Of a stretch of DNA of 64,000 nucleotides, positions 14,917 to 62,546 are shown in pieces. Each line of letters begins with the position of its first letter. Positions within the stretch are counted from its first letter, which is position 1. This DNA is from Candidatus Izemoplasmatales bacterium. GTDB lineage: Bacteria; Bacillota_I; Bacilli_A; Izemoplasmatales; Hujiaoplasmataceae. The notes under the pieces are model-generated. The model was not told where the DNA came from and searched no databases. It worked only from the letters and a program-made list of their open reading frames with translations. A program made the translations under genes and the position numbers. The stretch covers positions 1-64,000 of the forward strand of contig JBMNEZ010000001.1 in assembly GCA_050949045.1 (NCBI GenBank), in the 5' to 3' direction.

Positions 14917-15100
14917 GAACTTTTTGTCAACAGAGCAAAGAAGACGTCTTTTATGTATCGGAACCGGATATTTCTGAGGAGACATCTGCTAATTCAAATA
15001 TCACAGTAAACAAAAAGCAAACTCAAGAAACATCATTGATGGCCAAAGAAAAATTACTTGACTATTATCTGTCGATGAAAGATAATATAAGATGATTCCT

Positions 15101-15175
15101 AGGGGTGTGGTGTCAACGGTAGCACGACAGTCTCCAAAACTGTTTGAACGGGTTCAAATCCTGTCACCCCTGCCA
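15101..15175 (+). tRNA. tRNA-Trp (CCA)
   Basis: agggg acceptor stem, acagt-ctCCAaa-actgt anticodon arm, GGTTCAAATC, ends cccctgCCA. Confidence 0.96.
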
Positions 15176-15345
15176 TAAAAATGTTTAATTAGTAAACTAA
15201 ATATTTGAATGAATCGCCTAACAAGGCGATTTTTTCATAAATGGAAAGTCCATCTAGGTTATAGAAATGTTTCCTGGACGGACTTTTTAATACGGGCGGT
15301 GTTTTTTAATTTTTCACCCCAAAGGTTAGAAAATTTAATTTAAAA
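15171..15345 (+). repeat. Module B copy 1 (begins with tRNA 3' end TGCCA)
   Basis: tgccataaaaatgtttaattagtaaa...aatcgcctaacaaggcgattttttcataaa...aagtccatctaggttata..tgtttcctggacggacttt. Confidence 0.9.
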
Positions 15346-15407
15346 TATATATATTGAGTTGTCCAAAAATTGTGGACAACTGGATATAAATATGATATAA
15401 TCATTAT

Positions 15408-16262
15408 ATGAAAAAACATTCAATTAGATATTTTAATAATAAAGAAGTAAGAGCGATTTGGGATAATGAGAAATCGATGTGGTGGTATTCAGCAATTGAT
15501 TTAATTGATATTTTAGTTGAACCAAAATCTCCAAGGAGATATTGGAATAATACTAAAGTTAGAAATCCTGAGTTGTCTCCTTTTTGTGGACAACAGAAAT
15601 TATATGCTGAAGATGGGAAAAAATATAATTCTGAAGTTATTAACGAAGAGGGAATAAAACTTCTAATAACAATAATCCCCTCTAAATATCGAAAAGAAAT
15701 TCAAAATTGGCTTAAAGGTTTACTAGACCCTATTGATGAACAAAGCAAAAAGAAAGCTTATGATTTATTTAAAACTAATCTAATAAAAAAAGATGAAATC
15801 GGAAAGACAATATCTTTACAAAAAATTCACGCTTATTTATTTGAAGGTTTATATTCTTTTGCTGGAAAAATAAGATCCAAAACGATTTCAAAGGGTGGAT
15901 TTATGTTTGCTAATGGTGATTTTTTACCCGAAATTTTAAAAGGTATTGATAAGATGCCTGATAAAACATTTAAAGAAATTGTTGATAAATACATTGAAAT
16001 GAATATTGCTCATCCATTCATGGAAGGGAATGGTAGAGCAACACGAATTTGGTTAGATTTTCTTCTTAAAGATAGAATTAGTAAATGCGTCGATTGGTCG
16101 AAAATTGAAAAGGAAGCATATTTATCAGCAATGAAACAGAGCCCGTATAATTCAAAACCTATTTTTGAGTTATTGCAAAATGCTCTAACTGAAGATATCG
16201 ATAACCGCGAAGTTTTCCTTAAAGGTATTGATTACTCATATTATTATGAGGAAGAGGAGTAA
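15408..16262 (+). CDS. Fic family protein adenylyltransferase with N-terminal Bro-N-like domain
   Basis: Canonical HPFMEGNGRATR Fic motif; N-terminal FNNKEVRAIWD..WWYSAIDLI..PRRYW. Confidence 0.9.
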   Translation: MKKHSIRYFNNKEVRAIWDNEKSMWWYSAIDLIDILVEPKSPRRYWNNTKVRNPELSPFCGQQKLYAEDGKKYNSEVINEEGIKLLITIIPSKYRKEIQNWLKGLLDPIDEQSKKKAYDLFKTNLIKKDEIGKTISLQKIHAYLFEGLYSFAGKIRSKTISKGGFMFANGDFLPEILKGIDKMPDKTFKEIVDKYIEMNIAHPFMEGNGRATRIWLDFLLKDRISKCVDWSKIEKEAYLSAMKQSPYNSKPIFELLQNALTEDIDNREVFLKGIDYSYYYEEEE

Positions 16263-16303
16263 TTATAATATCAATATGATTCTATGAAAAGCAATACATA
16301 TTT

Positions 16304-16381
16304 TAATATGGGAAAGGTAAAATGAGACCAAAGGAATATTTAGAAAATACAACGGGTGACTCTGCGTTATCATTTTGCTAA
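16304..16381 (+). pseudogene. 5' remnant (19 codons) of the GNAT gene found intact at 21694
   Basis: MRPKEYLENTTGDSALSFC* vs MRAKEYLKNPTGASALSFW; RBS also conserved. Confidence 0.85.
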
Positions 16382-16410
16382 TGTATAATTAATTATAAGA
16401 AGGTGATAAC

Positions 16411-17016
16411 ATGGAAAAATTTCATTTTGAAATACCATCATTAGGAAGAAAAAATGAAATCATTGAATATCTAGATGAATTTGTAAAGTATGGTTCTGAT
16501 ATTAATGGCAGTGGTGGTTTAGATAAAATTTATGAGGGCTATACTTTTGAAGAAGCTTTAGATAGATGTTTAAAAATGGAAGATGAAGAATATGCAAAAA
16601 GAGTTGGAAGAAGCCAAGCAAAGGCATTTTTATTAATTAGGGAAAGTGATGATAAAATAGTTGGAACTATAAATGTTAGATGGAATTTAAATGAAGCAAT
16701 GTTACAATTCGGGGGACATATTGGTTTTGCTGTTAGGCCATCTGAAAGAAAAAAAGGGATTAATAAAGCTAATTTATATCTGGGAATGATTGAAGCTAAA
16801 AAAGTTGGATTAGATAGAGCGAGGATAGATTGTGATGTTAAAAATCTTGGGTCTGATAAAACACTAAAGGCTCTTGGTGGTACACTTGAAAGAACAGAGG
16901 TAGATCCTTCAGATGGAACTTTAACAAATGTGTATTGGTTTAATGTTGATGAAACAATAAATAATTATAAAAATATTTATGGACAATTTATTTCAATTTC
17001 TAGTGGGATAAATTGA
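16411..17016 (+). CDS. GNAT family N-acetyltransferase
   Basis: GTINVR..GGHIGFAVRPSERKKG..CDVKNLGS..LGG pattern. Confidence 0.85.
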   Translation: MEKFHFEIPSLGRKNEIIEYLDEFVKYGSDINGSGGLDKIYEGYTFEEALDRCLKMEDEEYAKRVGRSQAKAFLLIRESDDKIVGTINVRWNLNEAMLQFGGHIGFAVRPSERKKGINKANLYLGMIEAKKVGLDRARIDCDVKNLGSDKTLKALGGTLERTEVDPSDGTLTNVYWFNVDETINNYKNIYGQFISISSGIN

Positions 17017-17034
17017 AATAACATAAGTGTTCAA

Positions 17035-17385
17035 TTTTCCCTCAAAATGTATGATAAAAGACTTTTTAACCAGTTTTAGACAAATACCAAAATAGTAGCA
17101 ACTTTCCCCTAAAATACCCCAAAAATACCTCAAAAGGTATTCTAGCGGTTTTTTAGTAGTTTTATGTAAATGTATGCTTTTTTGCTAAACTTTTTGTATT
17201 AAAGGTGGTGCCATAAAAATGTTTAATTAGTAAACTGAATATTTGATCAAATCACCTAAAAAGGCGATTTTTTCATAAACGGAAAGTCCAACTGGGTTAT
17301 AAAATGTTTCCTGGTTGGATTTATTTAAATACTAATATTGGTTTTTAAAATCTCGCACCAAGGGTTCGAACTCTTCAATTTAAAA
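17035..17385 (+). repeat. Module A + TGCCA (17209) + module B junction, attP-like
   Basis: gactttttaacc..caacttt..ctaaaat..caaaaggtat..ttttttagtagttttatgtaaatgtatgc..ggtgcca followed by module B. Confidence 0.9.
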
Positions 17386-17522
17386 ACACGAATACGAATT
17401 TTAATTTACTACACCAGTTTTAATTTATAAAAAATAATCGTTTATCAAGACGTATGATAAAATAAAGATAGCATGAAATAATAGAGTATTACTTATAGTT
17501 GTTAAAGGCTGGTGTAAATAAA

Positions 17523-18299
17523 ATGAATATAGATGTTTCAATAATAAATGATTATTTGAATGATGAAGTTTCGTATGAAAAACATTGGATTTTTAATAGT
17601 ATATTAGGAAATAATCAATACCTTTTTGATAAGCCTTCACATAATCTTAAAGAAAGTATATCTAGTACAATGAAAAAAGTTATTGATATTCTTAAGTCTT
17701 TTATTCCGTATAATGTTGTTTTATTTTCTAAACTGTTTCTTAACTGGAAAGAATTAAGTAAAAATGTCAATGTGATTTTAGCTGTTGGATGTCCAAAACC
17801 ATATGATGCCATGATTAGAGAACATAATGAGAAAGACTATATAATTTTAGATTTAGTTCGTCTTTTGGATTATCATGAGGATATTTCTGAGGTTATTAAA
17901 AAGTTTTTTACACACGAATTAATACACGTTTGTATTAAGGTTGATTATCCATTTAATATAAAAAACGAATCAAGTTATAAAAAGATATTAGAATATTTAG
18001 TGTTTGATGAAGGTTTTGCACATTTACTTTCATTTAAAGAAAATGTTTGTGAATTTGATTTTAGCGAGTTAATAAAAACTCATTACAATAAATCAATTAA
18101 ACAACTAAAAATAGCATTGACTGAAGAAGAATTATCAAAGCAAATTGATCATTTGAATCAGGCAAATAGTGGAATTTATTGGAATAAGTTTGCAGCTATT
18201 ACTGGGAAGTTATATTTAGCTAATAATTTAAATGATTTATTTTCAATTTATAAAGCGGGACCGAAAACAATGCTAGAAAATATTATTTTTGAAGAATAA
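17523..18299 (+). CDS. Putative Zn-dependent protease (HExxH; DUF5700-like)
   Basis: THELIH and DEGFAH motifs; ATG 17523 after ggtg. Confidence 0.6.
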   Translation: MNIDVSIINDYLNDEVSYEKHWIFNSILGNNQYLFDKPSHNLKESISSTMKKVIDILKSFIPYNVVLFSKLFLNWKELSKNVNVILAVGCPKPYDAMIREHNEKDYIILDLVRLLDYHEDISEVIKKFFTHELIHVCIKVDYPFNIKNESSYKKILEYLVFDEGFAHLLSFKENVCEFDFSELIKTHYNKSIKQLKIALTEEELSKQIDHLNQANSGIYWNKFAAITGKLYLANNLNDLFSIYKAGPKTMLENIIFEE

Positions 18300-18321
18300 T
18301 TTAATATAACAAAATATAATC

Positions 18322-18348
18322 TAACCCCGTCGATTTCGATGGGGTTTT
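18322..18348 (+). terminator. Intrinsic terminator
   Basis: aaccccgtcga-tt-tcgatggggtt followed by T run. Confidence 0.7.
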
Positions 18349-18358
18349 ATGTCATAAG

Positions 18359-18447
18359 ACGTGAAAAACACTAAACATGTTGACTATTTTTCACGTTAAT
18401 GTTAAAATATACGCGAAAAACAGTCAACAATACGACTAAATTTCGGG
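18359..18447 (+). promoter_or_regulatory. Two operator-like inverted repeats flanking a -10-like TAAAAT
   Basis: CGTGAAAAA-N18-TTTTTCACG (18360-18395) and degenerate CGCGAAAAA-N18-AATTTCGGG (18412-18447). Confidence 0.65.
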
Positions 18448-18457
18448 AGTTGGTATA

Positions 18458-19762
18458 ATGATAAAAAGAGATTTCTATTTAAATAAGCTAGTAAATAGTA
18501 AAGATAACGGAAAAGTTAAAGTGATAACTGGTTTACGAAGATGTGGTAAATCTTATCTTTTGTTTAAACTATATAAAGAATATTTGTTAAGTGAAGGTAT
18601 AAGTGAAGAACAAATTATTGCATACAGTTTAGAGGGGTATGAAAACATACACCTAAGAAATATAACTGTTTTATATGCAAGCATTAAATCAAGAATTAAA
18701 GATGATAATAAAAAATATTATCTTTTTATTGATGAAATTCAAAATGTTCATTCAATCCAAAACCCATACGTAGAATCTAAAGATATAATAACATTTGTTG
18801 ATGTTATGTTAGAATTAGTAAAATTAGATAATTTGGACATATATATTACTGGCTCAAACTCTAAAATGTTATCTAAAGATATACTTACTCAATTTAGGGG
18901 AAGAACCCATCAAATAAGATTACTACCATTATCTTTTAATGAATTATATAAACATTTTGGGGATACTCCAGAATTATTAGATAATTATATTATGTATGGT
19001 GGTATGCCGGAAGTATATACTAAATTTAATAATGCAGAATCTAAAAGGGAATATCTTAAAGATCTTTTTGAAGAAACATATATAAAAGATGTTTTAGAAA
19101 AAAATAATATCCAAAATGATAAATACGTATTAGGAATACTTCTTGATTTCATATCATCTAGTGTTGGTTCTTTAATAAGTCCTTCAAAAATTTCTAATAG
19201 ATTTTTATTTGAACAAAATATAAAAATATCTAGTGAAACAGTTAATAGATATTTAAAATTTTTTGATGACGCATTTGTATTATCAAAAGCTAATAGATAC
19301 GATATAAGTGGAGCAAGATATTATCAAACTAATAATAAGTACTATTACACCGATGTAGGGCTAAGAAATGCACGACTTAATTTTCCACAAAAAGATCAAG
19401 GTCATATCATGGAAAATATAATATATATAGATTTAATAAAAAGAGGCTATAAAGTAGATGTTGGAATAGTACGTGATAATTACAGGGTTGACGGAAAACT
19501 TACACAAAAACAACTTGAAGTTGATTTTATGGCAACGGGAGCAAATGAGCGTTACTATATACAATCCGCCCTGACTTTAGACGATTTAAAAACAATAGAA
19601 AGAGAAACAAGACCATTAAATAAAATAAAAGACAACTTTATTAAAATAGTAGTTATCAAAAATTATACTGGTTCATTTTATGATAAGGATGGAATCTTTT
19701 ATATTAATTTAAAAGATTTTCTATTAAATGAAAACTTAGCTGAAATAACTAAAAGATGGTAA
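18458..19762 (+). CDS. AAA+ superfamily ATPase (AAA_14 + DUF4143-type)
   Basis: GLRRCGKS Walker A, FIDEIQ Walker B, TGSNS, GGMP, KYYYTDVGL, EVDF..YIQ. Confidence 0.9.
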   Translation: MIKRDFYLNKLVNSKDNGKVKVITGLRRCGKSYLLFKLYKEYLLSEGISEEQIIAYSLEGYENIHLRNITVLYASIKSRIKDDNKKYYLFIDEIQNVHSIQNPYVESKDIITFVDVMLELVKLDNLDIYITGSNSKMLSKDILTQFRGRTHQIRLLPLSFNELYKHFGDTPELLDNYIMYGGMPEVYTKFNNAESKREYLKDLFEETYIKDVLEKNNIQNDKYVLGILLDFISSSVGSLISPSKISNRFLFEQNIKISSETVNRYLKFFDDAFVLSKANRYDISGARYYQTNNKYYYTDVGLRNARLNFPQKDQGHIMENIIYIDLIKRGYKVDVGIVRDNYRVDGKLTQKQLEVDFMATGANERYYIQSALTLDDLKTIERETRPLNKIKDNFIKIVVIKNYTGSFYDKDGIFYINLKDFLLNENLAEITKRW

Positions 19763-19875
19763 ACAGCATAGGTTTTAATATTTATTTGGCTTTCAAGGTT
19801 TTAAAAAAATTGTAGAAGTATGCCATATTTTTATTTGGATAATTTAATAATCTGCAAAACACGGAATAAAACTCT

Positions 19876-20067
19876 TACAAATGTTAGGAAATGATGAAAT
19901 GATAACTAAAGCTATATTAGATAGGCTACTACATTATTCATATTTATTTAATATAATTGGCCCATTATATAGGATTAAAGATAAAGTAAAACTTAATAAA
20001 TCATAATTGAATAAAAGTGGGGATTCTTATCTGCACAAAAATGGGGACATTTAACTTGACATTTATA
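19876..20067 (+). mobile_element. Internally deleted IS21-family remnant
   Basis: IstB C-terminus MITKAILDRLLHYSYLFNIIGPLYRIKDK (19899-20006); ends TACAAATGTTAGG / revcomp TATAAATGTCAAG; ACTCT duplicated at 19871-19875 and 20068-20072. Confidence 0.8.
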
Positions 20068-20144
20068 ACTCTTGAAAAATCCGGAATAAAACCTCTGAAA
20101 AACCCGGAATTGTAATTTAATTTATAAGTAATATCTATTTCAGT

Positions 20145-20228
20145 TGCCATAAAAATGTGGACGACCGAATTCATGATTCAATTAGATACTTTAATGATAA
20201 GGAAGTAAAAGAGGAGAATAAATATTAA
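20145..20228 (+). pseudogene. Collapsed remnant of a module B + fic cassette
   Basis: tgccataaaaatg, then tgtggacgac (half of the fic operator), then 33 nt matching the fic 5' end at 30/33 positions. Confidence 0.75.
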
Positions 20229-20249
20229 TCATACAAAATTGAAATAGCA

Positions 20250-20338
20250 TAGACTTTCAAGATTTCAAAAACTTGCAAAAGTTGAAAGTCTAGGGTATAA
20301 TACTTTCAAGATAACAAAATTTTTGTTTTTTTGAAAGT
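20250..20338 (+). promoter_or_regulatory. Two operator-like inverted repeats flanking TATAAT
   Basis: TAGACTTTCAA-N21-TTGAAAGTCTA, TATAAT at 20296, ACTTTCAA-N21-TTGAAAGT. Confidence 0.75.
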
Positions 20339-20349
20339 GAGGCGTAGTT

Positions 20350-21552
20350 ATGAAACTTATCGAAAGAACTTTATATTTAGATAGACTTAAAAGAGTTAGA
20401 AATACTCCTGATATTAAAATTATCACTGGTATTAGAAGATCAGGCAAGTCTGAACTTATGAGATCTTATTTAAAATACATTAAAGAAACTGAACCAGAAA
20501 CAAATATAATAGAAATTGACTATGGTAATTTAAAATATGATGATATAAAAGATTACAAAAGTCTATATTCATATGTCGAAAGCAATTATAAACCTAATAC
20601 CAAAAATGTCTTAATGATTGATGAAGTTCAACTTTGTCGTGAGTTTGAGATTGCGGTTAACAGTCTTCATAACAACAAAAAATATGATATTTATTTGACT
20701 GGATCTAATGCTTTTTTATTAAGCTCAGATTTATCTACATTATTTACTGGAAGATTTATAGAAATTCCAGTTTTTCCATTTTCATTTAAAGAATATTTAG
20801 AATATTTTGAGATAGAGGATAATTTTTCTAATCATTTAGAAAATTACTTAAAAGTGGGAGGATTTGCGGGCTCATATTTATATGAAAACAAGGAAGATTC
20901 TAATGCATATATAAAAAACGTGTATACATCTTTAATTAAAAGAGATTTAGTCGATAGATATAATATTGAAGATATTTCGTTATTAGATACGCTAACAGAA
21001 TTTTTAATGGATAACATATCCAGCCTTACAACCGCTAATAATATATCTAACATATTAAATAACAAAAAGATTAAAACAAATCATGTAACTATCGGAAATT
21101 ACATTAAATATTTATGTAATGCTTTTATGTTTTATAAAGTAAAAAGATACGATATTAAAGGGAAAAAGTATTTAGAAATAAACGACAAGTATTATTTATC
21201 CGATTTATCTTTCCGTTATTCTATATTAGGAGTTAGAAACATAGATTATGGAAGAGTTTATGAAAATGTAGTAGCAATCGAATTATTAAGGCGGGGATAC
21301 GATATATATGTAGGTAAACTTTATGAAAAAGAAATAGATTTTATGGCAATTAAAGGTAGTGAAAAAATTTATATTCAAGTATCAGACAATATAAGCAGAG
21401 AAGAAACATTAAAAAGAGAAATTGCCCCTTTAATTGCTATAAAAGATGCTTATCCTAAAATTATCTTAGCAAATACGACACACCCAATGACAATAAAAGA
21501 CGGTGTAAAAATATTTGATTTAGCTAGATGGTTAATAGATGATAAGAATTAA
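20350..21552 (+). CDS. AAA+ superfamily ATPase (AAA_14 + DUF4143-type)
   Basis: GIRRSGKS, MIDEVQ, TGSNA, KYYLSD, EIDF..YIQV. Confidence 0.9.
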   Translation: MKLIERTLYLDRLKRVRNTPDIKIITGIRRSGKSELMRSYLKYIKETEPETNIIEIDYGNLKYDDIKDYKSLYSYVESNYKPNTKNVLMIDEVQLCREFEIAVNSLHNNKKYDIYLTGSNAFLLSSDLSTLFTGRFIEIPVFPFSFKEYLEYFEIEDNFSNHLENYLKVGGFAGSYLYENKEDSNAYIKNVYTSLIKRDLVDRYNIEDISLLDTLTEFLMDNISSLTTANNISNILNNKKIKTNHVTIGNYIKYLCNAFMFYKVKRYDIKGKKYLEINDKYYLSDLSFRYSILGVRNIDYGRVYENVVAIELLRRGYDIYVGKLYEKEIDFMAIKGSEKIYIQVSDNISREETLKREIAPLIAIKDAYPKIILANTTHPMTIKDGVKIFDLARWLIDDKN

Positions 21553-21693
21553 ATAATTATGTCATAAAAAAGATGAATTAGAATTTGTGGTAGGTTAAAA
21601 TGAATAAAACAGAAGACTTAAGACTTTATTGTTAATGTTAATATGAAACTGTGCCACTATTAAACAATATATTTTTAAGATGGGAAAGGTGAA

Positions 21694-22317
21694 ATGAGAG
21701 CAAAAGAATATTTAAAAAATCCAACGGGAGCCTCTGCGTTATCATTTTGGAAAACATGCCACTTTAATGCTCCTACTCATATTAAAGTTATTAATGAAAA
21801 TGAATTTAATCCAAATTTACTTGAAACACATACTGATGAAGTTTATTTTAAGTTGGTTCATTATCTCGAAAATATAGAAAAACAGTTTAAATCTGATAAA
21901 TTTATATTTGTTAAGGCTAGTACGGAAGAATTTGTTAATCATATAAATTCCTGCTATGAGAAAGAGAGATTAACAGCTGATGAACTAGAATCTTATAAAA
22001 ATAGACCGGTATACGATGAAGATCTATGGATTTGTTTATATGATAATGTAAATCATGTTATAGCTGCCACTGGTATAGCAGAGTTTGATAGAGAGATTAA
22101 AGAAGGCTACCTAGATTGGATTCAAGTTTCCAAGGAATATAGAGGACAAGGATTAGATAAGATTATTGTTTATGAACTGCTGAAAAGACTTAAAAGAAAG
22201 GCTAACTTTGTAACTGTTTCAGGAAGAGTAAATAATAAAACAAATCCAGAGAAATTATATGAAAGTTGTGGCTTCGAGAATAAAGTTTTGTGTCATATAC
22301 TTACGGAAAAAAAGTAA
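21694..22317 (+). CDS. GNAT family N-acetyltransferase
   Basis: LDWIQVSKEYRGQGL, LYESCGF. Confidence 0.85.
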   Translation: MRAKEYLKNPTGASALSFWKTCHFNAPTHIKVINENEFNPNLLETHTDEVYFKLVHYLENIEKQFKSDKFIFVKASTEEFVNHINSCYEKERLTADELESYKNRPVYDEDLWICLYDNVNHVIAATGIAEFDREIKEGYLDWIQVSKEYRGQGLDKIIVYELLKRLKRKANFVTVSGRVNNKTNPEKLYESCGFENKVLCHILTEKK

Positions 22318-22361
22318 TAGAAGATATGCTAGAAAGTAATGATGAATAATATTTAGGTTTA

Positions 22362-22712
22362 ATTTTCCTCTATTTTTTCTTAAAAGATATGCCGAAAGAC
22401 TTTTTAACCGGTTTATGAAAGCGTCTTTGTCGCCGACAACTTTCTTCTAAAATGCTCAAGAATAATCCAAAAGGTATGTTAATGGATTTTTTAGTAGTTT
22501 TATGTAAATGTATGCTTTTTCTCTAAATCTTTTGTGTTAAAAGAGGTGCCATAAAAATATTTAATTAGTAAAATCTAGTTGATTGATAAAATCGCCTAAC
22601 AAGGCGTTTTTTTCATAAAATGAAGTCCATCTAGGTTATAAAAATGTTTCTTAGATGGACTTTTTTAAAAATTGATATTGGTTTTTGATTTCCCATACCA
22701 AGGGTTCGAACC
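22362..22712 (+). repeat. Module A + TGCCA (22547) + module B junction, attP-like
   Basis: Collinear with 17035-17385. Confidence 0.9.
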
Positions 22713-23013
22713 GTTTATATAATCATAGCGATTCCAATGGTGCTGTTAAAGAAATGTTAGGGAGACATTTAGAAGGACATAGGGAGACGCGAAGAAAATT
22801 AGAGGAGATGTTTAAAAAGGCTGAAGACGACAAAATGTCATTTCTTGCGATAGAAATGTCGTTTAAAAAATAAAGTGGCCCTTTAATTTATAAGGAATTG
22901 TAATAATATTATTTTTTATTAAATAGATTTAGATACTAGAAATAGGGTGGACATTTTTGATTTAGAAAAAGCCGAGACAAGTAGAGACTTTATATATACA
23001 TAATTTAATAATC

Positions 23014-23100
23014 TGCAAAACACGGAATAAAACTCTTGAAAAATCCGGAATGAAATCTCTGAAAAATCCGGAATAAAACTCTTGAAAAATCTGGAATGAA
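23014..23100 (+). repeat. Four tandem 23-bp direct repeats in the promoter of the third AAA ATPase
   Basis: Consensus tgaaaaatccggaataaaactct, period 23; TATAAT just downstream. Confidence 0.9.
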
Positions 23101-23130
23101 TGTATATAATAAATGTGAGGAGGGAACAAT

Positions 23131-24390
23131 ATGATGATGCCTATAAATTATAAAAAAAGATTGATTGAAGAACAGATTAAAGAAAAGATGAAATATAGTG
23201 GTGGAGTACTTATTGAGGGAGCAAAATGGGTTGGCAAATCAACTACTGCCAGTATCTTTGCAAAAACAATAGTGAGCCTCCAACATCCTCGCATTAAGAA
23301 AGAATATCAAGCTTATGCTGCTGTTTTAGATGATAAAATTTTAGAGGGCGAAAAACCAATTCTATACGACGAATGGCAAGACATTCCTGAAATTTGGGAT
23401 TTTATTCGTATTGATGTTGATAAAAACAATTATAAAGGGGCATATTTGTTAACTGGTTCTACTAGGAAACAAAACATAGAAACATCTCATACAGGTACAG
23501 GAAGAATTAACTCCGTTTATATGAGACCAATGAGTTTATATGAAAGTGGTGAATCTAACGGACTTGTTTCTTTGAAAAAACTTTTTAAAAATTCAAAATC
23601 ATTTGTTGAAAAGTCTACAGTCACTATTGATGATATTGCCTATTTGATTTGTCGTGGCGGTTGGCCTGGAAGTTTGGACTTGGATAAAAAATCACAATTG
23701 CAAATCCCAAAAGATCTTTTAAATTCGATTATTACTAGAGATTCTAAGGAAATTGATGGAATATCGAAAGATATAAAAAAAATGCGTAAAATTGTTCAAA
23801 GTTATGCAAGAAATGTTTCAACATTAGCCTCAAACTCAACAATCTATAAAGATCAAAACTATAATGAAATAGTAACTGAGAAAACATTTAATTCGTATAT
23901 GAATTCATTAGAGAGATTATTTATTGTTGAGGATGTTGAGGCGTGGTCTCCTAGTGTTAGAAGTGCTAGCAGAATTAGAAAAGGAAATAAAAGACAATTC
24001 GTTGATCCAAGCATTGCTGTTGCTGCATTAAGTTTAACACCAGATAAACTTTTGAAAGATTTTGAAACCTTCGGATTTTTATTTGAATCAATTGTTACAA
24101 GAGACCTTAGGGTGTGTGTTGAAAATATTGGAGGCAATGTTTATTATTATAATGATTCATCAGGACTTGAAGTTGACTTGATCATTGAATTAGAAGATGG
24201 TTCTTGGGCTGGTGTTGAGGTAAAATTAGGTAGTAATGAATTAGATAAAGCTAGTGCTAATTTGTTAAAACTAGCTGATATATCCGAAGTCAAACCATCA
24301 TTTCTGATGGTATTAACTAATACTGAGATAGCATATCGAAGACCAGAAGATGGGATATATGTTGTACCTCTTGGTTGTTTAGGTCCTTAA
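23131..24390 (+). CDS. AAA+ superfamily ATPase (DUF4143-type)
   Basis: GAKWVGKST, YDEWQ, LTGS, GGWP, DPSIA, EVDL..VEVKLG. Confidence 0.9.
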   Translation: MMMPINYKKRLIEEQIKEKMKYSGGVLIEGAKWVGKSTTASIFAKTIVSLQHPRIKKEYQAYAAVLDDKILEGEKPILYDEWQDIPEIWDFIRIDVDKNNYKGAYLLTGSTRKQNIETSHTGTGRINSVYMRPMSLYESGESNGLVSLKKLFKNSKSFVEKSTVTIDDIAYLICRGGWPGSLDLDKKSQLQIPKDLLNSIITRDSKEIDGISKDIKKMRKIVQSYARNVSTLASNSTIYKDQNYNEIVTEKTFNSYMNSLERLFIVEDVEAWSPSVRSASRIRKGNKRQFVDPSIAVAALSLTPDKLLKDFETFGFLFESIVTRDLRVCVENIGGNVYYYNDSSGLEVDLIIELEDGSWAGVEVKLGSNELDKASANLLKLADISEVKPSFLMVLTNTEIAYRRPEDGIYVVPLGCLGP

Positions 24391-24659
24391 TTTTTATAAA
24401 AGAATTTGAAGATGTTTTTGTGCTAATAGCAGAAATTGAATATAAAGATTTACACAATGAAATAAGAAATCAAATGTCTGTACTTATACTATAGATTAGG
24501 ACTAAAACTTGGTACTATGAAAAAGGGAATTTTTCTTATGAAACACAGTGGAAAATTGAAATTTTAGATTGTCTAACTTCTATTGTCTGAACGATTATAA
24601 CCTAGGGGGTTGCACGATTGAACGATTACTTCCGAAATTGTATCAATTAGGACAGCGCT

Positions 24660-24830
24660 TGCCATAAAAATATTTAATTAGTAAAATCTAATTGATTGAT
24701 AAAATCGCAAGGCGATTTTTTCATAAAAAGAAGTCCACCTAGGTTACAAAAAAGTTTCCCGGATGGACTTTTTAATATTGATATTGGTTTTTAATTTCTC
24801 GCACCAAGGGTTTGAACTTCTCATTTTAAA
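24660..24830 (+). repeat. Module B copy 4 (not preceded by module A)
   Basis: tgccataaaaatatttaattagtaaaatcta..aatcgcaaggcgattttttcataaaa..aagtccacctagg..ggatggacttt..gcaccaagggtttgaac. Confidence 0.9.
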
Positions 24831-25013
24831 ATATGAATAATAATTTCAAAATAATATTTGTAGAATACTAACACTAACTATTTGATAAAAAAAAGGGGAA
24901 CTCTCGTTTTATTCCATAAAAACATAAATTTTTTATCAAATACATGATAAAATTATTTTAAAGATCAATCTAATTATTATCTAAGAGTTTATATTTAAGA
25001 TGGGAATGATAAA

Positions 25014-26972
25014 ATGAGAGCAAAAGAAAAAAACACAGATATTTGGGTGTATGAATTATTAAAAGAAGCAGGATTAAAATTAGATCCTCAAGGATCTACA
25101 ATAAAAGAAATAGATAGAGCACTTAAATCGGCTTCTAAGCATGGAACTGGAAAGCCTGGTTTTCCTGAATATACTGGGGTTGTAAAAGATTTTTTAATTG
25201 TCATTGAAAATAAAGCATCTGTTTCAAATCATGTTAAAAGAACGAGTGAAGATTTAATTTGTCAAGAAACTGATTCAATAGTTAATTATGCTGTAAATGG
25301 AGCTTTGTTTTATGGAAAACATTTAGCTAAAAATACATCGTATAAAAAAATAATTGCTATTGGTGTTTCAGGAAATGAAAAGAAGCACAGAATTAGCCCT
25401 GTTTTTGTTAATGAACGAGAAGATTATTATGAGTTACCGGAATTAGAAACATTTATATATTTCAATGAACAAAACATTGATGAGTATTATATCAAAGAAA
25501 TTTTAAAAGAAAACACAGATTTTGAAAAAGAGACTCAAGAAATATTAGCAGATGCTAAAGTGTTACACGAAGATTTAAGAAATTATGGTGCGATACAAGA
25601 CAAAGACAAGCCCCTAATAGTTTCAGGAATATTATTAGCATTAAGAGAGATTGAGCATGGCAATTTTAGTATTGAGTCATTGACTGGTGATACTAGAGTA
25701 ACTGATGGACAAAAAATTTATAATGCAATACAAGCCAATTTATCAAGAGCAAATGTTTCTCCAGAAGTTAAAAAAGATAAATTGTTAAATCAGTTTTCTG
25801 TTATAAAAGATACTACAAAAATTAATTTAATTGAACCAAATTTAGGTAAAACACCGAATAGACATTTTACAGAGTTTCTATATAATAGCATATATAAATC
25901 TATTAGATTTCATCAAAATGGAGAAGATTATTTAGGTAGATTTTATGGTGAATTTATGTCTTATTCAGGTGGAGATGGACAGGCTCTAGGGATTATACTA
26001 ACACCAAGACATATCACAGAATTATTCACGGAATTGTTAGATTTAAAACCTGAAGATAAAGTATTAGACCCTTGTTGTGGAACTGGTGGTTTTTTAATCG
26101 CTGCAATGCATAATATGATGCAAAAAACAGAAGATCATCTAAAAAAAGAAAGTATTAGAAAAAACCAATTATTTGGGCTTGAACTACAACCATATATGTT
26201 TACTATTGCAACCACTAATATGATTTTAAGAGGAGATGGCAAAAGCAATCTTGAACAAGATGATTTTTTAAAACAAAATCCTAAAAAGTTGCAATTAAAA
26301 GGTTGTACAGTAAGAATGATGAACCCACCATATTCACAAGGTTCTAAAACTAATCCTGATTTATACGAGATATCTTTTACTGAACATTTACTTGATTCTA
26401 TAGTTGAAGGAGGTAAAGTTGCAATTATAGTTCCTCAATCTACTATGACAGGTAAAACCAAATATGAGCAAAGCGTTAAAGCTAATATTCTAAAAAAACA
26501 TACTTTAGAAGGTGTTATTACTCTAAATAAAAATACATTCTACGGGGTTGGAGTTAATCCTTGTATCGCGGTTTTCACTATAGGTGTTCCTCACCATGAA
26601 GAAAAGACTTGTAAGTTTATTAATTTTGAAGATGATGGTTATGTTGTTCAAAAACATATTGGGTTAGTAGAAACTCCAAGTGCCAAGGATAAAAAACAAC
26701 ATTTACTGAATGTATGGTTTAATCGTGTTGAATCTGATACTAGTTTTTGTGTTGAAACAACCATAGAATATGATGATGAATGGTTGCACTCTTTTTATTA
26801 TTTCAATGATGAGATTCCATCTAATGAAGATTTTCAAAATACCATAGCAGATTATATTACCTTTGAGGTTAATATGATTACTCACGGTAGAGGTTATTTA
26901 TTTGGTATTGATAATGAGTTAGAACAAATAGAAAAACCATCAAAAGATGTAACGGGTGATTCAAATGATTGA
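25014..26972 (+). CDS. Fused restriction endonuclease/N6-adenine methyltransferase (BcgIA-like, Type IIB/IIG)
   Basis: N-terminal GFPE..VIENK nuclease-like motif; LTPRHI, DPCCGTGGF, NPPY. Confidence 0.88.
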   Translation: MRAKEKNTDIWVYELLKEAGLKLDPQGSTIKEIDRALKSASKHGTGKPGFPEYTGVVKDFLIVIENKASVSNHVKRTSEDLICQETDSIVNYAVNGALFYGKHLAKNTSYKKIIAIGVSGNEKKHRISPVFVNEREDYYELPELETFIYFNEQNIDEYYIKEILKENTDFEKETQEILADAKVLHEDLRNYGAIQDKDKPLIVSGILLALREIEHGNFSIESLTGDTRVTDGQKIYNAIQANLSRANVSPEVKKDKLLNQFSVIKDTTKINLIEPNLGKTPNRHFTEFLYNSIYKSIRFHQNGEDYLGRFYGEFMSYSGGDGQALGIILTPRHITELFTELLDLKPEDKVLDPCCGTGGFLIAAMHNMMQKTEDHLKKESIRKNQLFGLELQPYMFTIATTNMILRGDGKSNLEQDDFLKQNPKKLQLKGCTVRMMNPPYSQGSKTNPDLYEISFTEHLLDSIVEGGKVAIIVPQSTMTGKTKYEQSVKANILKKHTLEGVITLNKNTFYGVGVNPCIAVFTIGVPHHEEKTCKFINFEDDGYVVQKHIGLVETPSAKDKKQHLLNVWFNRVESDTSFCVETTIEYDDEWLHSFYYFNDEIPSNEDFQNTIADYITFEVNMITHGRGYLFGIDNELEQIEKPSKDVTGDSND

Positions 26973-28595
26973 GAAGTTGACATTGAATGATGTTAGTTGG
27001 AGTAAATTTAAAGTTAAGGATGTTTTTGAAGTAACTAACTCAAAGCCGTATCACAAGGAAATCTTAGAAGTTTCATTGCGTGGAATCCCCTATATCACTA
27101 GGACATCATTAAACAATGGATTAGATGAAATTGTTAATATGGAAGAGAACTTTGATATTAATAAAGGAAATGCTATTACTTTGGGTGCAGAAAACGCTGA
27201 CTTTTTTTATCAAGAAAAAGATTATATAACAGGAAATAAAATGTACAGAATTTCTAATAAATATATGAACAAACAAATTGGGTTGTTTTTAGTTCAAGTG
27301 TTTCGTGAAAGCATTAAAAACAGCGGTTTTGGATATGGTAAGGGTTTAACGGGGACTAGATTTAAAGAAAGAATAATTGTGTTACCTGTTGATGATAATG
27401 GTCGTCCAAATTGGGAATTTATGGAAAATTATATTAAACAAGAACAAAAAGAAATTGCCCAAAATGTAATTAATTATTACGAACAAAAAATGATTGAAAC
27501 TGGCTTTGATTTAATAGGTTTAGAAGATGTTGAATGGAAAGATTTTAAAATCAGTGATTTGTTTGAAACTTTTGAAGGATCGAATGGAGTTCAAACACCA
27601 ACTGGAAGTTACATACCTAAAGATGAATTAATTGACTCTAACATTCCAAGAATTACAGCAAAAGAAACAAACAATGGTATTGATGGATACTATTATTCTT
27701 CAAACAAAAATTTTAGAGTTTTTAAAAACTTTATTAGTGTTTCATTTATGGGGAGTGCTTTTTACCATTCTTATGAAGCATCTTTAGATATGAAGGTTCA
27801 TGCTCTTATTCCTAAAAACTTTGATTTAACAGAAAATATTGCATTATTTATTATTCAAACATTAAAAAATAATACAAAATTATTTTCTTATGGGAATCAG
27901 CTTTCAAGTACTGATTTACCACACCAGAAAATATTATTACCTATAGATTCTAACGGTAATCCACATTTAGAATATATAGATATATTCGTAAGAAAAATAA
28001 AATCAGAAAATATCGAAAAAGCACTACAATATATATATATATATATAAGCTAGCAATTAAAGCGGAACAACAATTGTCAAATTTAATGGATAAAGAGTGG
28101 AAAGAGTTTAAAATTAAAGAATTATTTGATGTTAGTGGAACGGTTACAACACATCCAACCGAACTAATATCAGATGGTAAAACGCCTCGAATTACTACAG
28201 CTGCTAGCAATAATGGTTTAGAATCTTTTTATAGAAATAAAGCAACTGAAAAAGGAGGAGTACTCACAGTTGATAGTGCAACAATTGGTTATGTAAGTTA
28301 TCAATATTCAGATTTTATAACAACAGATCATGTTGAAAAAATTAGTTTTAAAGGCGAAAGATTTATTCCAAAAACGATAGGTTTATTTCTTAAAACATGT
28401 ATTGACAAATCAAAGGGTGAAAAATTTGGTTATGGTTATAAATTTAGTCAATTTAGAATTAATAGACAAATCATAAGTTTACCTGTTGATAAAAATGGAG
28501 AACCAGACTATGCATATATGAATAAATATATCTTAATTCAACAAATAAAAGAACAATACAAAGTTATAAATTATTATTATTCTCTTATAGATTGA
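26956..28595 (+). CDS. RM specificity (S) subunit split by an (AT)9 frameshift: 2 TRDs in ORF 26956-28053, third TRD in 28074-28595
   Basis: Three repeats of W..F.i.dlF...P.IT....NNG...I.LP.D.NG.P; removing one AT unit fuses the ORFs. Confidence 0.85.
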
Positions 28596-28614
28596 CATAA
28601 ACAAAAGGGCTTGA

Positions 28615-57820: not shown

Positions 57821-58985
57821 CATCCTTACAATCTTCAAAAAAGAATGGGATCGGGTTATTAAAGACAAGCGATTAGTTTTTTCGGTGATATTGTTGCCGG
57901 GATTGATGATCTATATTCTCTATTTTTTTATCGGTTCCGGGTTGACCTCGTTATACAGCGAGTTGGATGAACGCATTGCGATGGTCAATGCACCCCAAGG
58001 GTTTGTGTCTTTTGTGGAGACAATTACCGAAACAGAAGCGTTGGAATATTCCGAGATTAATGAAACTGACATCGAGGCTTATAAAGAAAAAATAGACAAT
58101 GGCGATTGGGAGTTGGTGCTTGTTTTCCCCAGCGATTTTTCCGATCAGGTAGCCGCTAAGGAAAAGCCTACGGTGAATTTGTATTACAACATCAACGAGA
58201 TTGCCTCAAGTCAGATCTACGACTATTATTCGGGATATCTTGAATTTTACCAACAACAACTCGCCTACGAGATATATGGTGAAATCAAGGCTTTCGAACA
58301 GGCGGCCGATTCCCTTCCCGTAGATCAGGAACAGGCGACCGGAATGATGGTGTCGATGCTATTGCCAATGCTAGTATTGATGTTCCTGTTTAGTGGCGCG
58401 ATGTCGATTGGGCCGGAAGCGATTACCGGAGAGAAGGAAAGGGGAACAATCGCAACCTTGTTGGTCACACCGGTCAAGCGCAACCAGATCGCCTTGGGGA
58501 AGATTTTGGGGCTTGGGGTCTTGTCGCTCATCTCCGCTTGCTCATCCTTTATTGGCGTTTTGTTGTCCATGCCTAAACTGTTCGCGATTGAAGACATTGA
58601 CATATCTATATATTCAGTTACCGATTACTTACAAATTTTGTTGATTCTTTTCTCGACGGTGTTTGTCATTGTCGGCATTATTTCGGTCATCTCCGCCTTT
58701 GCGAAGAACATGAAAGAAGCGGGAACCTTGATTGTGCCTGTTTACTTGCTGACGATTATCATCGGGGTTACTTCGATGTTCAGGCAAGGAGCAGTATCCA
58801 ATCCCTTCTTATATCTCATCCCTCTTTATAACTCGAATCAAACCATGATCGCCATTTTCACTTTTGATCCGTTATCGTGGCTATACACGCTTATCAGTGT
58901 TATAGCAAACATCGTCTATCTCATATTGCTTGTGATTTTGCTCAACAAGATGTTCAACAGCGAAAAGATCATGTTCAGTAAATAG
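57813..58985 (+). CDS. ABC-2 type permease (NatB-like)
   Basis: IFKKEW, GEKERGT..LLVTP..GK, TM helices. Confidence 0.88.
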   Translation: MRNILTIFKKEWDRVIKDKRLVFSVILLPGLMIYILYFFIGSGLTSLYSELDERIAMVNAPQGFVSFVETITETEALEYSEINETDIEAYKEKIDNGDWELVLVFPSDFSDQVAAKEKPTVNLYYNINEIASSQIYDYYSGYLEFYQQQLAYEIYGEIKAFEQAADSLPVDQEQATGMMVSMLLPMLVLMFLFSGAMSIGPEAITGEKERGTIATLLVTPVKRNQIALGKILGLGVLSLISACSSFIGVLLSMPKLFAIEDIDISIYSVTDYLQILLILFSTVFVIVGIISVISAFAKNMKEAGTLIVPVYLLTIIIGVTSMFRQGAVSNPFLYLIPLYNSNQTMIAIFTFDPLSWLYTLISVIANIVYLILLVILLNKMFNSEKIMFSK

Positions 58986-59340
58986 TTTTTCATTGTAATA
59001 TATTCGAAATACTACAGGAGTTTCACGTGTTGCGATTGATTTTGTTTTTGCAAAATCAATATCCTTCATCGGCGAACTCCTGTTTTTTTTGGATTGAGGA
59101 TGGGAGGAGTATGTCATAATAATGCTAAAGGGGGAAAACGCAGTAACCAAAAGGGTTTCAGAGTTTCCACAAAGTTTGAAATTTTAAAAAATACTGCTCA
59201 ATCGTTATGTTTTGTAATCGGTGCCATAAAGTGATATTGATTATGGACTATTACAGATGGCATGCGATTGAATAATTTTAAGTGACATAAGTGTCACTTC
59301 GTGGTACAATAATGTCACTTTGGAAAGAGGTAATAAGACA

Positions 59341-60675
59341 ATGAATCTAGGAAAAGAAACTGAAACTCTTGAATTTAAAAAATCAACGAGTGAGATAAAA
59401 ACTGCTATGATTTCCATAGCGTCTATATTAAATAAGCACGGTATCGGTACATTGTATTTCGGGGTCAAGCCCAACGGTGATGTTGTTGGGCAAAATGTGT
59501 CGGAATCGTCTTTAAGAGATGTTTCTAGAGCGGTTTATGAAGACATCAAGCCGCAGATATACCCTGCCATTGAAGAAATTTTGATGGAGGGGAAGCAATT
59601 GATAAAGGTTGAATTCAGCGGTGATAGCAAACCATACTCCGCAGCGGGCAGATACTATTTGAGAACTGCAGATGAAGATAAAGAGGTGAGCCCCGAAGAA
59701 TTAAAAACTTTTTTTGAGGCAAACAAATACCGCACAAAATGGGAAAGTGGCAAATCCGACACTTTATCAAAACAAGTTGACAAGCTTGCAGTAAAGTCGT
59801 TTTGGCAAAAAGCGATAAACGCCGGAAGATTACCCGAAGGCAGGTATACCACGCAGATTATCTTAAAAAGATTCGGTCTTGTTAAAGATGAGCATTTGAC
59901 AAATGCCGGTGAAGTTCTCTTTGGCGATACAAGGTCCGTTTCTCTAAAAGTCGGTATATTTGCAACGGACGAAAAATTGACAATTCTTGATATGAAATTA
60001 TATGAGGACAATATTTATAATCTGTTGAAGACGGCTGAAGATTACATATTTAAGAATATACGATGGAAAGTTGAAATTATTGAATCGGAAAGAAGTGAGA
60101 TTCCTGAAATACCGACTGCAGTGATAAGAGAGGTTTTGGCAAACAGTTTTGCACACGCAATGTATGGAAGCAGGACAAGTCATGAGATATGTATTCATCC
60201 AAGTATGATAACTATATATAGTCCGGGAGATTATGCCAGTAGATACAAACCGGAAGAATATATTAAAGGCAATGTAGAGTCTGAGATAAGAAATGCGACA
60301 ATTTCAAAAATTCTGTACTTGAGCAAATACATAGAGCAGTTCGGCAGCGGTTTCAAGAGAATAGATAGCCTATGTAAAGATTCCGAAATCAAATATTCTT
60401 ACGAAAACAAAGATAATGGATTTAAATTTATAATATATCGACCACAGATTCAAAGTGACATTTTAGATGTCACTTTGGATGTCACTTTGAACGGAACAGA
60501 GAAAGCGGTTTATGCTATTTTAAAACAAAAATCGGATTCTTCAAGAGAAGAAATAGCTGATAAGATTTCTAAAACTGTAAGAACGGTTCAAAGAGCACTC
60601 AATTCTCTTGTAGAGAAGGGTTATATCAGACGAGTCGGCTCTAAACAGAATCCGGTATGGGAAGTGTTGAAATAG
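59341..60675 (+). CDS. AlbA_2/Schlafen-like DNA-binding + HATPase-like + winged-HTH protein
   Basis: ETETLEFKKS..N..G..YFGV..G; REVLANSFAH; RN..I..IEQFGSG; C-terminal SREEIA..RTVQR; ATG 59341 after gaggt. Confidence 0.85.
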   Translation: MNLGKETETLEFKKSTSEIKTAMISIASILNKHGIGTLYFGVKPNGDVVGQNVSESSLRDVSRAVYEDIKPQIYPAIEEILMEGKQLIKVEFSGDSKPYSAAGRYYLRTADEDKEVSPEELKTFFEANKYRTKWESGKSDTLSKQVDKLAVKSFWQKAINAGRLPEGRYTTQIILKRFGLVKDEHLTNAGEVLFGDTRSVSLKVGIFATDEKLTILDMKLYEDNIYNLLKTAEDYIFKNIRWKVEIIESERSEIPEIPTAVIREVLANSFAHAMYGSRTSHEICIHPSMITIYSPGDYASRYKPEEYIKGNVESEIRNATISKILYLSKYIEQFGSGFKRIDSLCKDSEIKYSYENKDNGFKFIIYRPQIQSDILDVTLDVTLNGTEKAVYAILKQKSDSSREEIADKISKTVRTVQRALNSLVEKGYIRRVGSKQNPVWEVLK

Positions 60676-60697
60676 AGATATCTGATTAAATTTCGAG

Positions 60698-61561
60698 TTG
60701 AAAAGGAGATATTATTTGACTTTAGAAAAAGTTATTTCAGAACTGAATTATGTAAAAGATGTGGAGCAAGCGGTTTTTCAAAAAATCAGCAGAAATAAAA
60801 AAGCAATTGAAGAAATTGCAAAAACCGCATATCAGGGAGATAATTTTGATTTTGCATTACTTAAGTGTATGCCCTTAACTCGTTTATCTGTTGTCACCTA
60901 CCTTTTGATTAGTAAATATGATGAATACAGTACAAAAGGAATTCCGGACAGGATTATTTTTGACACATTTGAAGATGTTTCTCTACGAGCTAATTTATAT
61001 TATAAAAAAACAGGCAAGGCGGGCATTTCAAAAGATGATGTTATTTGGTTCCGACACATTATGAATGTTTCGATATTCAAAATAGGTTCTCTGCAATTTC
61101 AGCCATTTGAGATGATATATTTGGATGAAGATACGATTGGTGAGTCTTATATGTCATTTACGAAAGAGCAGAAAGAGTCTTTGCCAAACGGTTCACCCGT
61201 TATTAACTGCCATATTCAACGAGGTGTAGATTTAAATCCGAAATCAATTGAATTATCTTTTCAAAAAGCAAAAGTTTTTTTCTCGGAAATTTATCCAAAA
61301 CAAGAGTATAAAGCTTTTCTGTGATATAGTTGGATGCTATATCCGCCCATGTTGGAAAAGCTATCCGAAAAATCAAATATTAAGCAGTTTGCTGATAAGT
61401 TCGCTATTATTGGAGATTGTCCTGATCCGGAGCAGGCAACAGAATTTATTTTGGGCTATAACAAGAGAAAAGTAATTCCTGAAAATACGAGTTCTCTTCA
61501 AAAAATGGCATTCGAACATCCGGAATGGCTGGGCTTTGCGTGTGGAATTATTTGGATATAG
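60698..61561 (+). pseudogene. Acyltransferase-like (DUF5596-type) gene with one in-frame TGA at 61322
   Basis: FKIGSLQFQ, HIQRG, then AFL*YSWMLYP continuing in frame to SNIKQF and SSLQK. Confidence 0.7.
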
Positions 61562-61865
61562 ATTTTAGTCTGTTGTACCTGAACTTAAGAGGACCCTTGA
61601 TGTCAGACAAACGCTATACTTGGGAAAGGTTGATTTTACCGGGTTTTATTAATATAAAAACAGCTAAAAACAGGGCTTTATTTTCGACTTCTTCGCAGGG
61701 ACAATAGTTTTTTTGTTATCAGTGTTTTTTAAGAAGGCAAAGGGCAAGATGTCTAAAGCGCTTTTGAGTACTTTAGTTTGTCAAAGCGGTGTGTTTTATT
61801 GTATGTCAATCCAAAAAATGGTATCATATTCATAAACAAAACAGTATCAGAAGCGAGATGGGACA

Positions 61866-62546
61866 ATGGTTTTGATCGAAGCAAAGAAAGTCGAAAAGGA
61901 ATACATTACCCAAGCTGGATCGATCCGGGTTTTAAAGAACATCAACCTATGTGTCAAAAACGGGGAGTTTGTCGGCATCGTCGGACCTTCCGGTTCGGGA
62001 AAGTCAACTCTATTATATGTGCTCAGTGGTCTGGAAAAGGCCACCTCCGGCGAAGTTATACTGTTTGGAAAATCAACCGCAGAGATGAATGATGCTGACA
62101 TGAACGCGATCCGCAAATCAAAGATCGGTTTTGTATTCCAGTTCTATAACCTCTTGCCCAACTTGACTGTTCTTGAGAATGTTGAGTTGCCACTGGTAAT
62201 TGCCAGGCAAACCGATTTGTCCAAAGCGATCGAAGCTTTGAAAATGGTCAATCTTGATAAGCATTTAACATTGTATCCCGCCCAACTCTCGGGAGGCATG
62301 CAACAAAGAGTGGCCATCGCCAGAGCGATGGTCACGAACCCCAAAATCCTATTCGCGGATGAACCGACTGGGAATCTTGATTACCAAAGCAGTATTGAAA
62401 TCATCGAGATTCTCAAGAACTTGAATCAGAAACAGCAGACGACGATTGTGCTGGTGACCCACAATCTCGAGCATATGGCTTACTGCTCACGAAAAATAGA
62501 AATCATTGATGGAAATATCGGCGAAGATGAAAGAACTAGGTTTTAA
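61866..62546 (+). CDS. ABC transporter ATP-binding protein (LolD/MacB-type)
   Basis: [38 protein letters not shown]. Confidence 0.93.

Follow-up and report, generated by a model that had tools for sequence, protein, structure and literature searches.

The locus and its protein

The window (the whole stretch of 64,000 nucleotides that was analysed) carries at 59341..60675, on the + strand, a gene for a 444-aa protein in which Pfam, the alignment and a structure model delineate a Schlafen domain (AlbA_2), a GHKL ATPase domain (HATPase_c_4), a linker and a winged helix. The Pfam matches bear out the domain call of the first-pass annotation, SLFN_AlbA_2, HATPase_c_4 and HTH. The N-terminal AlbA_2 domain matches PF04326 with an E value of 1.9e-18, and its Ex4ExK motif (E6, E11, K13) is invariant in alignment A2, as is the E264/N268 pair of the GHKL domain, found as PF13749. 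The C-terminal HTH, matched by PF13730 and PF13412, is also present in the structure model. It occupies 60490..60672 (+ strand), with KTVRTVQR as the recognition helix and GSKQ as the wing, and both appear to co-vary with the DNA motif described below. The model has a mean pLDDT of 73, falling below 50 at residues 371-381 in the linker; its fold matches DIP2311 (3LMM) and, weakly, the ATP-binding domains of kinases. A homodimer prediction scored 0.00, which yields no answer either way. PADLOC gave weak partial matches only, and no NCBIfam family scored above its cut-off for the protein.

The protein is a "Schlatpase" with an HTH (10.64898/2026.05.29.728809), the same class that was named HisKinase-HTH (PMC13056530). 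It shares with that class the AlbA_2 (PF04326), GHKL (PF13749) and C-terminal HTH domains, with the Ex4ExK motif and the GHKL E/N pair intact. Schlafen-ATPases are given as the largest class of bacterial Schlafen proteins, 58.6% of 103,533, in the accessible part of the former report (10.64898/2026.05.29.728809). The accessible text of both sources assigns no function or binding site to the HTH and makes no mention of promoter or linker repeats (PMC13056530; 10.64898/2026.05.29.728809). According to the part of the latter report that is open, seven genes including HisKinase fusions were tested and two defended, the HisKinase fusions not being among them (PMC13056530); toxicity and a role in defence are therefore assumptions here. 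Two long proteins of 2,918 aa (P0162) and 1,182 aa (P0226) contain 4 and 12 stretches, respectively, that match the family profile.

Boxes in the promoter and in the linker

Three GTCACT boxes lie over the promoter of this gene, and three more lie in the linker codons ahead of the winged helix. Promoter boxes 1 and 2 form a dyad, AAGTGACATAAGTGTCACTT, at 59280..59299 (no strand assigned), and box 3, ATGTCACTTTGG, is at 59312..59323 on the + strand. In the best promoter match at the locus box 1 overlaps the -35 hexamer GTGACA (59282-59287), box 2 lies in the spacer, and box 3 covers the predicted transcription start. The extended -10, TG-g-TACAAT (59302..59310, + strand), is 17 nt from the -35 and is assigned by consensus match only. 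GTGACA-17-TACAAT agrees with the consensus at 10/12 positions and has the extended TG in addition; the score is the joint best (15 sites in 58950-61900), and among the 10/12 sites of that region this is the only one with TG. The linker array at 60452..60490 (no strand assigned) has its inverted box at 60452-60461 and its two direct boxes at 60467-60478 and 60479-60490. It encodes SDILDVTLDVTL, residues 372-383 when numbered from the ATG at 59341. The boxes are 4 nt apart inside the promoter dyad and 7 nt apart in the linker, and 1,155 bp separate the two arrays. Every string quoted from the locus in the first-pass annotation, the TG-g-TACAAT -10 included, was found where it had been placed, and so was the exact 12-bp match between promoter and linker, which joins promoter box 3 to linker box 2. 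At least two promoter boxes are present in 45 of 47 close relatives.

The first-pass annotation had stated that a motif frequent throughout the genome would speak against its reading. The 8-mer TGTCACTT is indeed as frequent as expected, with 44 genome copies vs 37-45 from Markov models of orders 2-5, whereas the 12-mer and the clustered array are rare. The 12-mer has three genome copies, two of them at the locus, for 0.24 expected, and ATGTCACTTT has nine, four of them at the locus, for about 4 expected genome-wide. The 1.36 Mb contain two inverted box pairs within 20 nt and two direct ones within 30 nt, and all four lie at the locus. When the 930 ORFs of the genome were ranked by the 8-mers common to the upstream region and a 60-bp window of the ORF, this gene came first.

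Correspondence across the family

The sample comprised 155 genes with a start, 100 bp of upstream DNA and an HTH; 79 of these shared 60% identity or more with the window protein and were reduced to 47 representatives below 95% identity. With clustering at 60%, promoter and linker of the same gene had at least 16 nt in common in 12/57 cases, vs 16/544 for other windows of the same gene and 95/3,150 for mismatched pairs; with clustering at 90% the corresponding counts were 47/110, 30/1,063 and 527/10,680. Several genes have motifs of their own that match within the gene, such as TGTCGTA (L058), TGTCCA (L065), TGATAC (L077), TGATAAG (L079) and TGTCACC (L108). Across relatives, changes of the motif are common to promoter and linker. 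The 3-nt flank agrees between the two in 44 of the 49 close-relative genes that could be scored (of 53), an agreement that a small number of clades accounts for (10 and 8 changes on the tree). The output of a simple 7-mer motif finder was discarded as too noisy.

By strict cut-offs, 71 diverse representatives divide into 13 with both arrays, 14 with a linker array only, 29 with a promoter array only and 15 with neither, although four of the linker-only cases show promoter copies by eye. The expectation that the linker unit of each homologue would repeat its own upstream motif thus holds for a subset of the family, 13/71 in the strict test, and is not universal. Both paralogues in this genome are of the linker-only kind, with no motif match upstream. 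These paralogues, L026 (G000:C1:485259-486677) and L027, each lie just 3' of a tRNA-like sequence, and their linkers read NVGQ x4 and NEGQ x4. In L143 (alignment columns 1200-1400) the DNA of linker and HTH is 90/77% like that of the window gene and the body 59-74%, a possible recombination near the linker. A description of promoter-linker repeats in the Schlafen-ATPase-HTH family was not found in the literature searched, a search that left most subscription papers outside.

Constraint on the linker array

Is it the DNA or the peptide of the linker that is conserved? Among the 47 relatives, a single codon accounts for at least 95% of members in seven of the eight conserved linker columns, vs none of 296 columns elsewhere, and for this reason the constraint on the array is taken to act on the DNA rather than on the amino acids, a conclusion that we regard as supported. 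Asp373 is encoded by GAC in the inverted box and Asp380 by GAT in a direct box, each as its box demands. The orientation of the same motif also changes the peptide, SDI vs VTL, with RVT in L073 and L075. The first-pass annotation had taken the peptide repeat for the by-product of a DNA operator array. Codon fixation, orientation-dependent peptides and changes shared by promoter and linker all argue for the by-product; the term operator rests on the overlap with the promoter and on co-variation with the helix, and is used here in a putative sense.

Helix, wing and motif

The winged helix is the likely reader of the motif, as judged from comparison of sequences. The recognition helix could be placed in register in 39 genes, 34 of which have an array (classified by eye). 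Where Arg or Lys precedes the conserved Thr of the helix, the core is TG(T/G)C in 21/21 arrays (by eye; the orientation in L115 is ambiguous); the 13 genes with other residues at this position have TGA in 11 cases, TGTA in one and none in one (by eye). The cores of linker-only arrays still fit the type of their own helix. The flank in turn goes with the wing: TAT is found with GAKK, GAKR or GTKK (9/9), TCT with GAKQ (6/7), and GTA with GSDK (2/2). The window gene itself has the TTG flank, L162 belongs to the TAT type and L173 to the TCT type. L057 and L204 have promoter boxes that fit their own wing and no linker boxes; since relatives that lack the linker repeat keep matching promoter boxes, the winged helix is the likely reader and the peptide an unlikely one.

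A further set comprised 150 cluster representatives; the helix was in register in 51 of them, and a period-4 repeat was present in 15. Linker repeats of Arg-type proteins contained (N/D)V or (N/D)G in 10/10 cases; the exceptions in this set were one Lys-type misfit and two non-Arg/Lys proteins with NG. An automated, tree-based test of the helix-motif association called 13 of 39 genes and yielded two independent pairs (sign test p = 1); AT-rich cores were dropped by this procedure and it is underpowered. The changes behind the helix-motif association that count as independent are few.

The cassette

Judged by comparison with other genomes, the Schlafen gene sits in a 2.6-kb cassette that is spreading horizontally. 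Its left end is a non-coding stretch at 59106..59190 (+ strand), found as the same end in unrelated genomes, and its right end, at 61569..61699 (+ strand), terminates in CAGG and recurs likewise in other genomes. Two other genomes contain units with the same ends that match the window from 59106 to 61700 at 91-92% identity over 2,597 bp, and the gene recurs with 89-96% protein identity in MAGs that have Christensenellales, Clostridiaceae and Anaerolineaceae as titles. A second cargo gene at 60698..61561 (+ strand) encodes an N-acyltransferase (NAT_N/GNAT_C), as assigned by domain calls and by comparison with L002 and L005; a stop splits the ORF here (208 + 75 aa), and L002 and L005 have a single ORF of 287 aa. 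Cassettes of this kind (window 59106-61700, G000:C1:258494-260916, G542) have two fixed non-coding ends, occur solo or in tandem, and were seen in 8 genomes of several lineages. In G542 (G542:C1:165246-183366) nine copies of the end sequence are spread over 18 kb, with small cargo genes in between. Cargo identified by eye includes acetyltransferases, NUDIX-like and nucleotidyltransferase-like proteins, AAA ATPases, and Schlafen genes.

The boundaries have GG at 15/18 starts and 11/13 ends, the left boundary in the window reading GA. As far as the accessible text on IS607-family ends and their serine-recombinase crossover dinucleotide goes (PMC6188088), the cassettes recall them in that most boundaries have GG and that no terminal inverted repeats were seen, and they differ in the GA at the left boundary in the window, in that no recombinase was seen on any unit, and in tandem arrays of cargo. 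No serine recombinase was found on the cassette units, and the genome itself has no PF00239 match. No autonomous element was found, none of 16 resolvase-family loci appearing in a scan for cassette ends, and inspection by eye of 40 kb surrounding the G542 array revealed no integrase-like ORF. Integron attC sites form a hairpin on the bottom strand; for the joined cassette ends the top strand was folded, and it was no more stable than shuffled sequences (z 0.41). The cassette ends were absent from the plasmids searched, from viral contigs (exact 20-mer) and from 157 other genomes of the order.

The fic gene

The first-pass annotation had held that a fic gene in the same window follows the same logic. 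This gene, at 15408-16262 (NCBIfam NF046029, PADLOC PDC-S04), has a palindrome, GAGTTGTC..GTGGACAAC, both upstream (15357-15381) and in frame within the coding sequence (15571-15597), so that the two copies are real. The logic resembles that of the Schlafen gene; the internal copy, however, lies not in a linker but in the N-terminal region matched by PADLOC PDC-S13, and it has drifted in some relatives. Six of 15 loci have both copies; in L260 and L261 the promoter copy is kept and the internal one has drifted, L267 and L268 have the internal palindrome only, and L263 looks like a fusion of promoter and internal copies. No relatives of the fic gene were found in viral contigs. The surrounding stretch, window 15100-28600, is of low GC, follows a tRNA-like sequence and includes, by eye, the Fic gene, acetyltransferase-like genes, three AAA-type ATPases and restriction-modification-like genes.

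Discussion

What could a second array inside the gene contribute? We think it fairly probable that the GTCACT boxes are sites for the C-terminal winged helix of the protein itself, and that the linker copies form an auxiliary operator which tightens self-repression of a probably toxic Schlafen nuclease. Single boxes would each be bound by one winged helix, and the difference in spacing between the dyad and the linker boxes fits domains that are flexibly tethered. An ATP-driven tetramer is described, in the accessible text, for a Schlafen-GHKL protein (10.64898/2026.05.29.728809), and an oligomer analogous to this RzAgo Schlafen-GHKL tetramer could carry several helices and bridge both arrays. 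Looping of this kind would strengthen repression, or the bound array would act as a roadblock just before the helix codons, or both. A roadblock would be expected to give transcripts without a stop, as with LacI at O3, where, according to the accessible part of the report, transcription is blocked and products are tagged by SsrA (PMC3711431). The disordered linker tolerates arbitrary residues, and this would leave the array free to change with the helix. For a gene that a small cassette carries from one phylum to another, a self-contained brake would also be suitable. Against an auxiliary operator stands the large promoter-only group (29/71), which shows that many family members do without the linker copy; and the linker arrays of the two paralogues lack an upstream match, so that looping offers no explanation for them.

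Intragenic binding sites of this general kind have precedents. The lac operator O2 lies inside lacZ, and the lambda O gene contains the iterons of the replication origin within its own coding sequence. Our locus resembles lambda O in having the protein's own (here predicted) binding repeats inside its gene, and differs in that those repeats make up a replication origin, of which there is no sign here. With lac O2 and O3, as far as the latter is described in the accessible text (PMC3711431), the likeness lies in a regulator site in transcribed DNA, in cooperation of an oligomer with the promoter operator, and in self-limited expression. Unlike the lac sites, the site here is a tandem array that appears to dictate the peptide of the linker; each gene has a version of its own, which changes along with the helix across a large family, and looping and roadblock are for this locus a proposal. 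The Fic toxin CccR likewise combines an enzyme with a C-terminal HTH that represses its own promoter through repeats near the -35 and -10 (PMC9755527), and self-repression is predicted in our case; CccR has another enzyme and another spacing, and no intragenic copy is described in the accessible text. Auxiliary intragenic operators are known, and the literature searched contained no description of an array that dictates the linker throughout a family and follows the helix in its changes. The present analysis adds the codon test, the association of the motif with helix and wing, the counts of linker-only and promoter-only genes, the deletion alleles, and the cassette.

Other explanations of the linker array were weighed against the auxiliary operator. 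That the array works independently of the promoter, alone blocking RNA polymerase before the helix codons or tethering the nuclease on DNA until phage-driven DNA breakdown, seems unlikely to us, even though linker-only arrays with cores fitting their helix type exist, the two paralogues in this genome among them, and a roadblock by LacI at O3 is on record in the accessible part of that report (PMC3711431). The joined cassette ends carry a -35/-10-like junction (reading by eye), which makes read-through into such an array plausible. On the other side, promoter-only genes outnumber linker-only ones (29/71 and 14/71), and three short boxes may be too weak against the polymerase, the block at lac O3 being faint without the tetramer in the text accessible (PMC3711431). 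Extended to the family, the idea becomes a doubtful one: many Schlafen-ATPase-HTH genes might carry, in their linker codons, an inseparable operator working under any promoter. Bound protein would end its own transcript ahead of the DNA-binding domain, or the nuclease would stay attached to the gene that encodes it until the DNA is destroyed, and each gene would then set a helix beside its cognate site as a natural recognition code (Arg/Lys to TG(T/G)C, others to TGA, wing to flank). We find it hardly credible that DNA is contacted by the tetrapeptide repeat, which would in this way read its own coding sequence. The repeat residue L, Y or S does match the flank TTG, TAT or TCT by construction; on the other side, synonymous sites are fixed in the linkers of the 47 relatives, inverted boxes give other peptides, and L057 and L204, which lack a linker repeat, keep promoter boxes of the type expected.

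Codon fixation would also follow if the inverted and the first direct linker box formed an mRNA hairpin for pausing, processing or self-cleavage. The stem would have 15 bp (z -3.92, none of 200 shuffles being as stable), and the inverted/direct pair occurs at fixed spacing in 40/47 relatives, yet we consider such an RNA element highly improbable as the cause: the third box is as fixed as the other two and yet no part of the stem, no G-U pairs occur at the six core positions in 40 sequences, other linker arrays are mostly direct repeats only, and the promoter copies are largely untranscribed. A hairpin may contribute in the clade of the window gene and is not the general cause. Recombination, with the boxes as crossover points for excising or swapping the enzyme body, or as sequences merely homogenised by gene conversion, is in our estimate very unlikely. 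Exact box-to-box deletions with two junction types were found in four of 25 loci (L018, L019, L020 and L022), where a promoter box is joined to a linker box and the enzyme body is lost; a similar fusion exists in the fic relative L263, and flank changes are concerted over 5-6 copies. However, seven of the 11 loci with a visible break have other junctions, the remnants lack a ribosome-binding site and two have stops, and promoter boxes are more variable than linker boxes, unlike the outcome of simple copying. We infer that the box-to-box losses are deletions between direct repeats of the ordinary kind; they would be a price paid for the arrangement, which implies some benefit to balance it.

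In contigs of seven sequencing runs, three showed a joint of 59234 to 60478 with unknown letters between, and because of these letters it is not countable as a box-to-box deletion. RNA runs contained less than 0.1 of the sequence words. A body swap in L168 was considered and rejected, as sliding DNA identity gives it no support. In L021 (3400-3500), 3' of another Schlafen-ATPase gene that has a 12-bp promoter repeat of its own, a transposase-like fragment is joined to an HTH remnant, and the junction falls at a short match to the last linker box.

If the boxes are indeed read by the winged helix as sites of self-repression, the HTH of Schlafen-ATPase proteins would have a precise target, and the tetrapeptide repeats of their linkers would be explained as DNA sites rather than as protein features. 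The family would then supply matched helices and sites from which a recognition code might be derived, along with repressor-operator pairs that may be orthogonal. Recoding such "low-complexity linkers" in gene synthesis may delete a control element and alter toxicity in defence screens.
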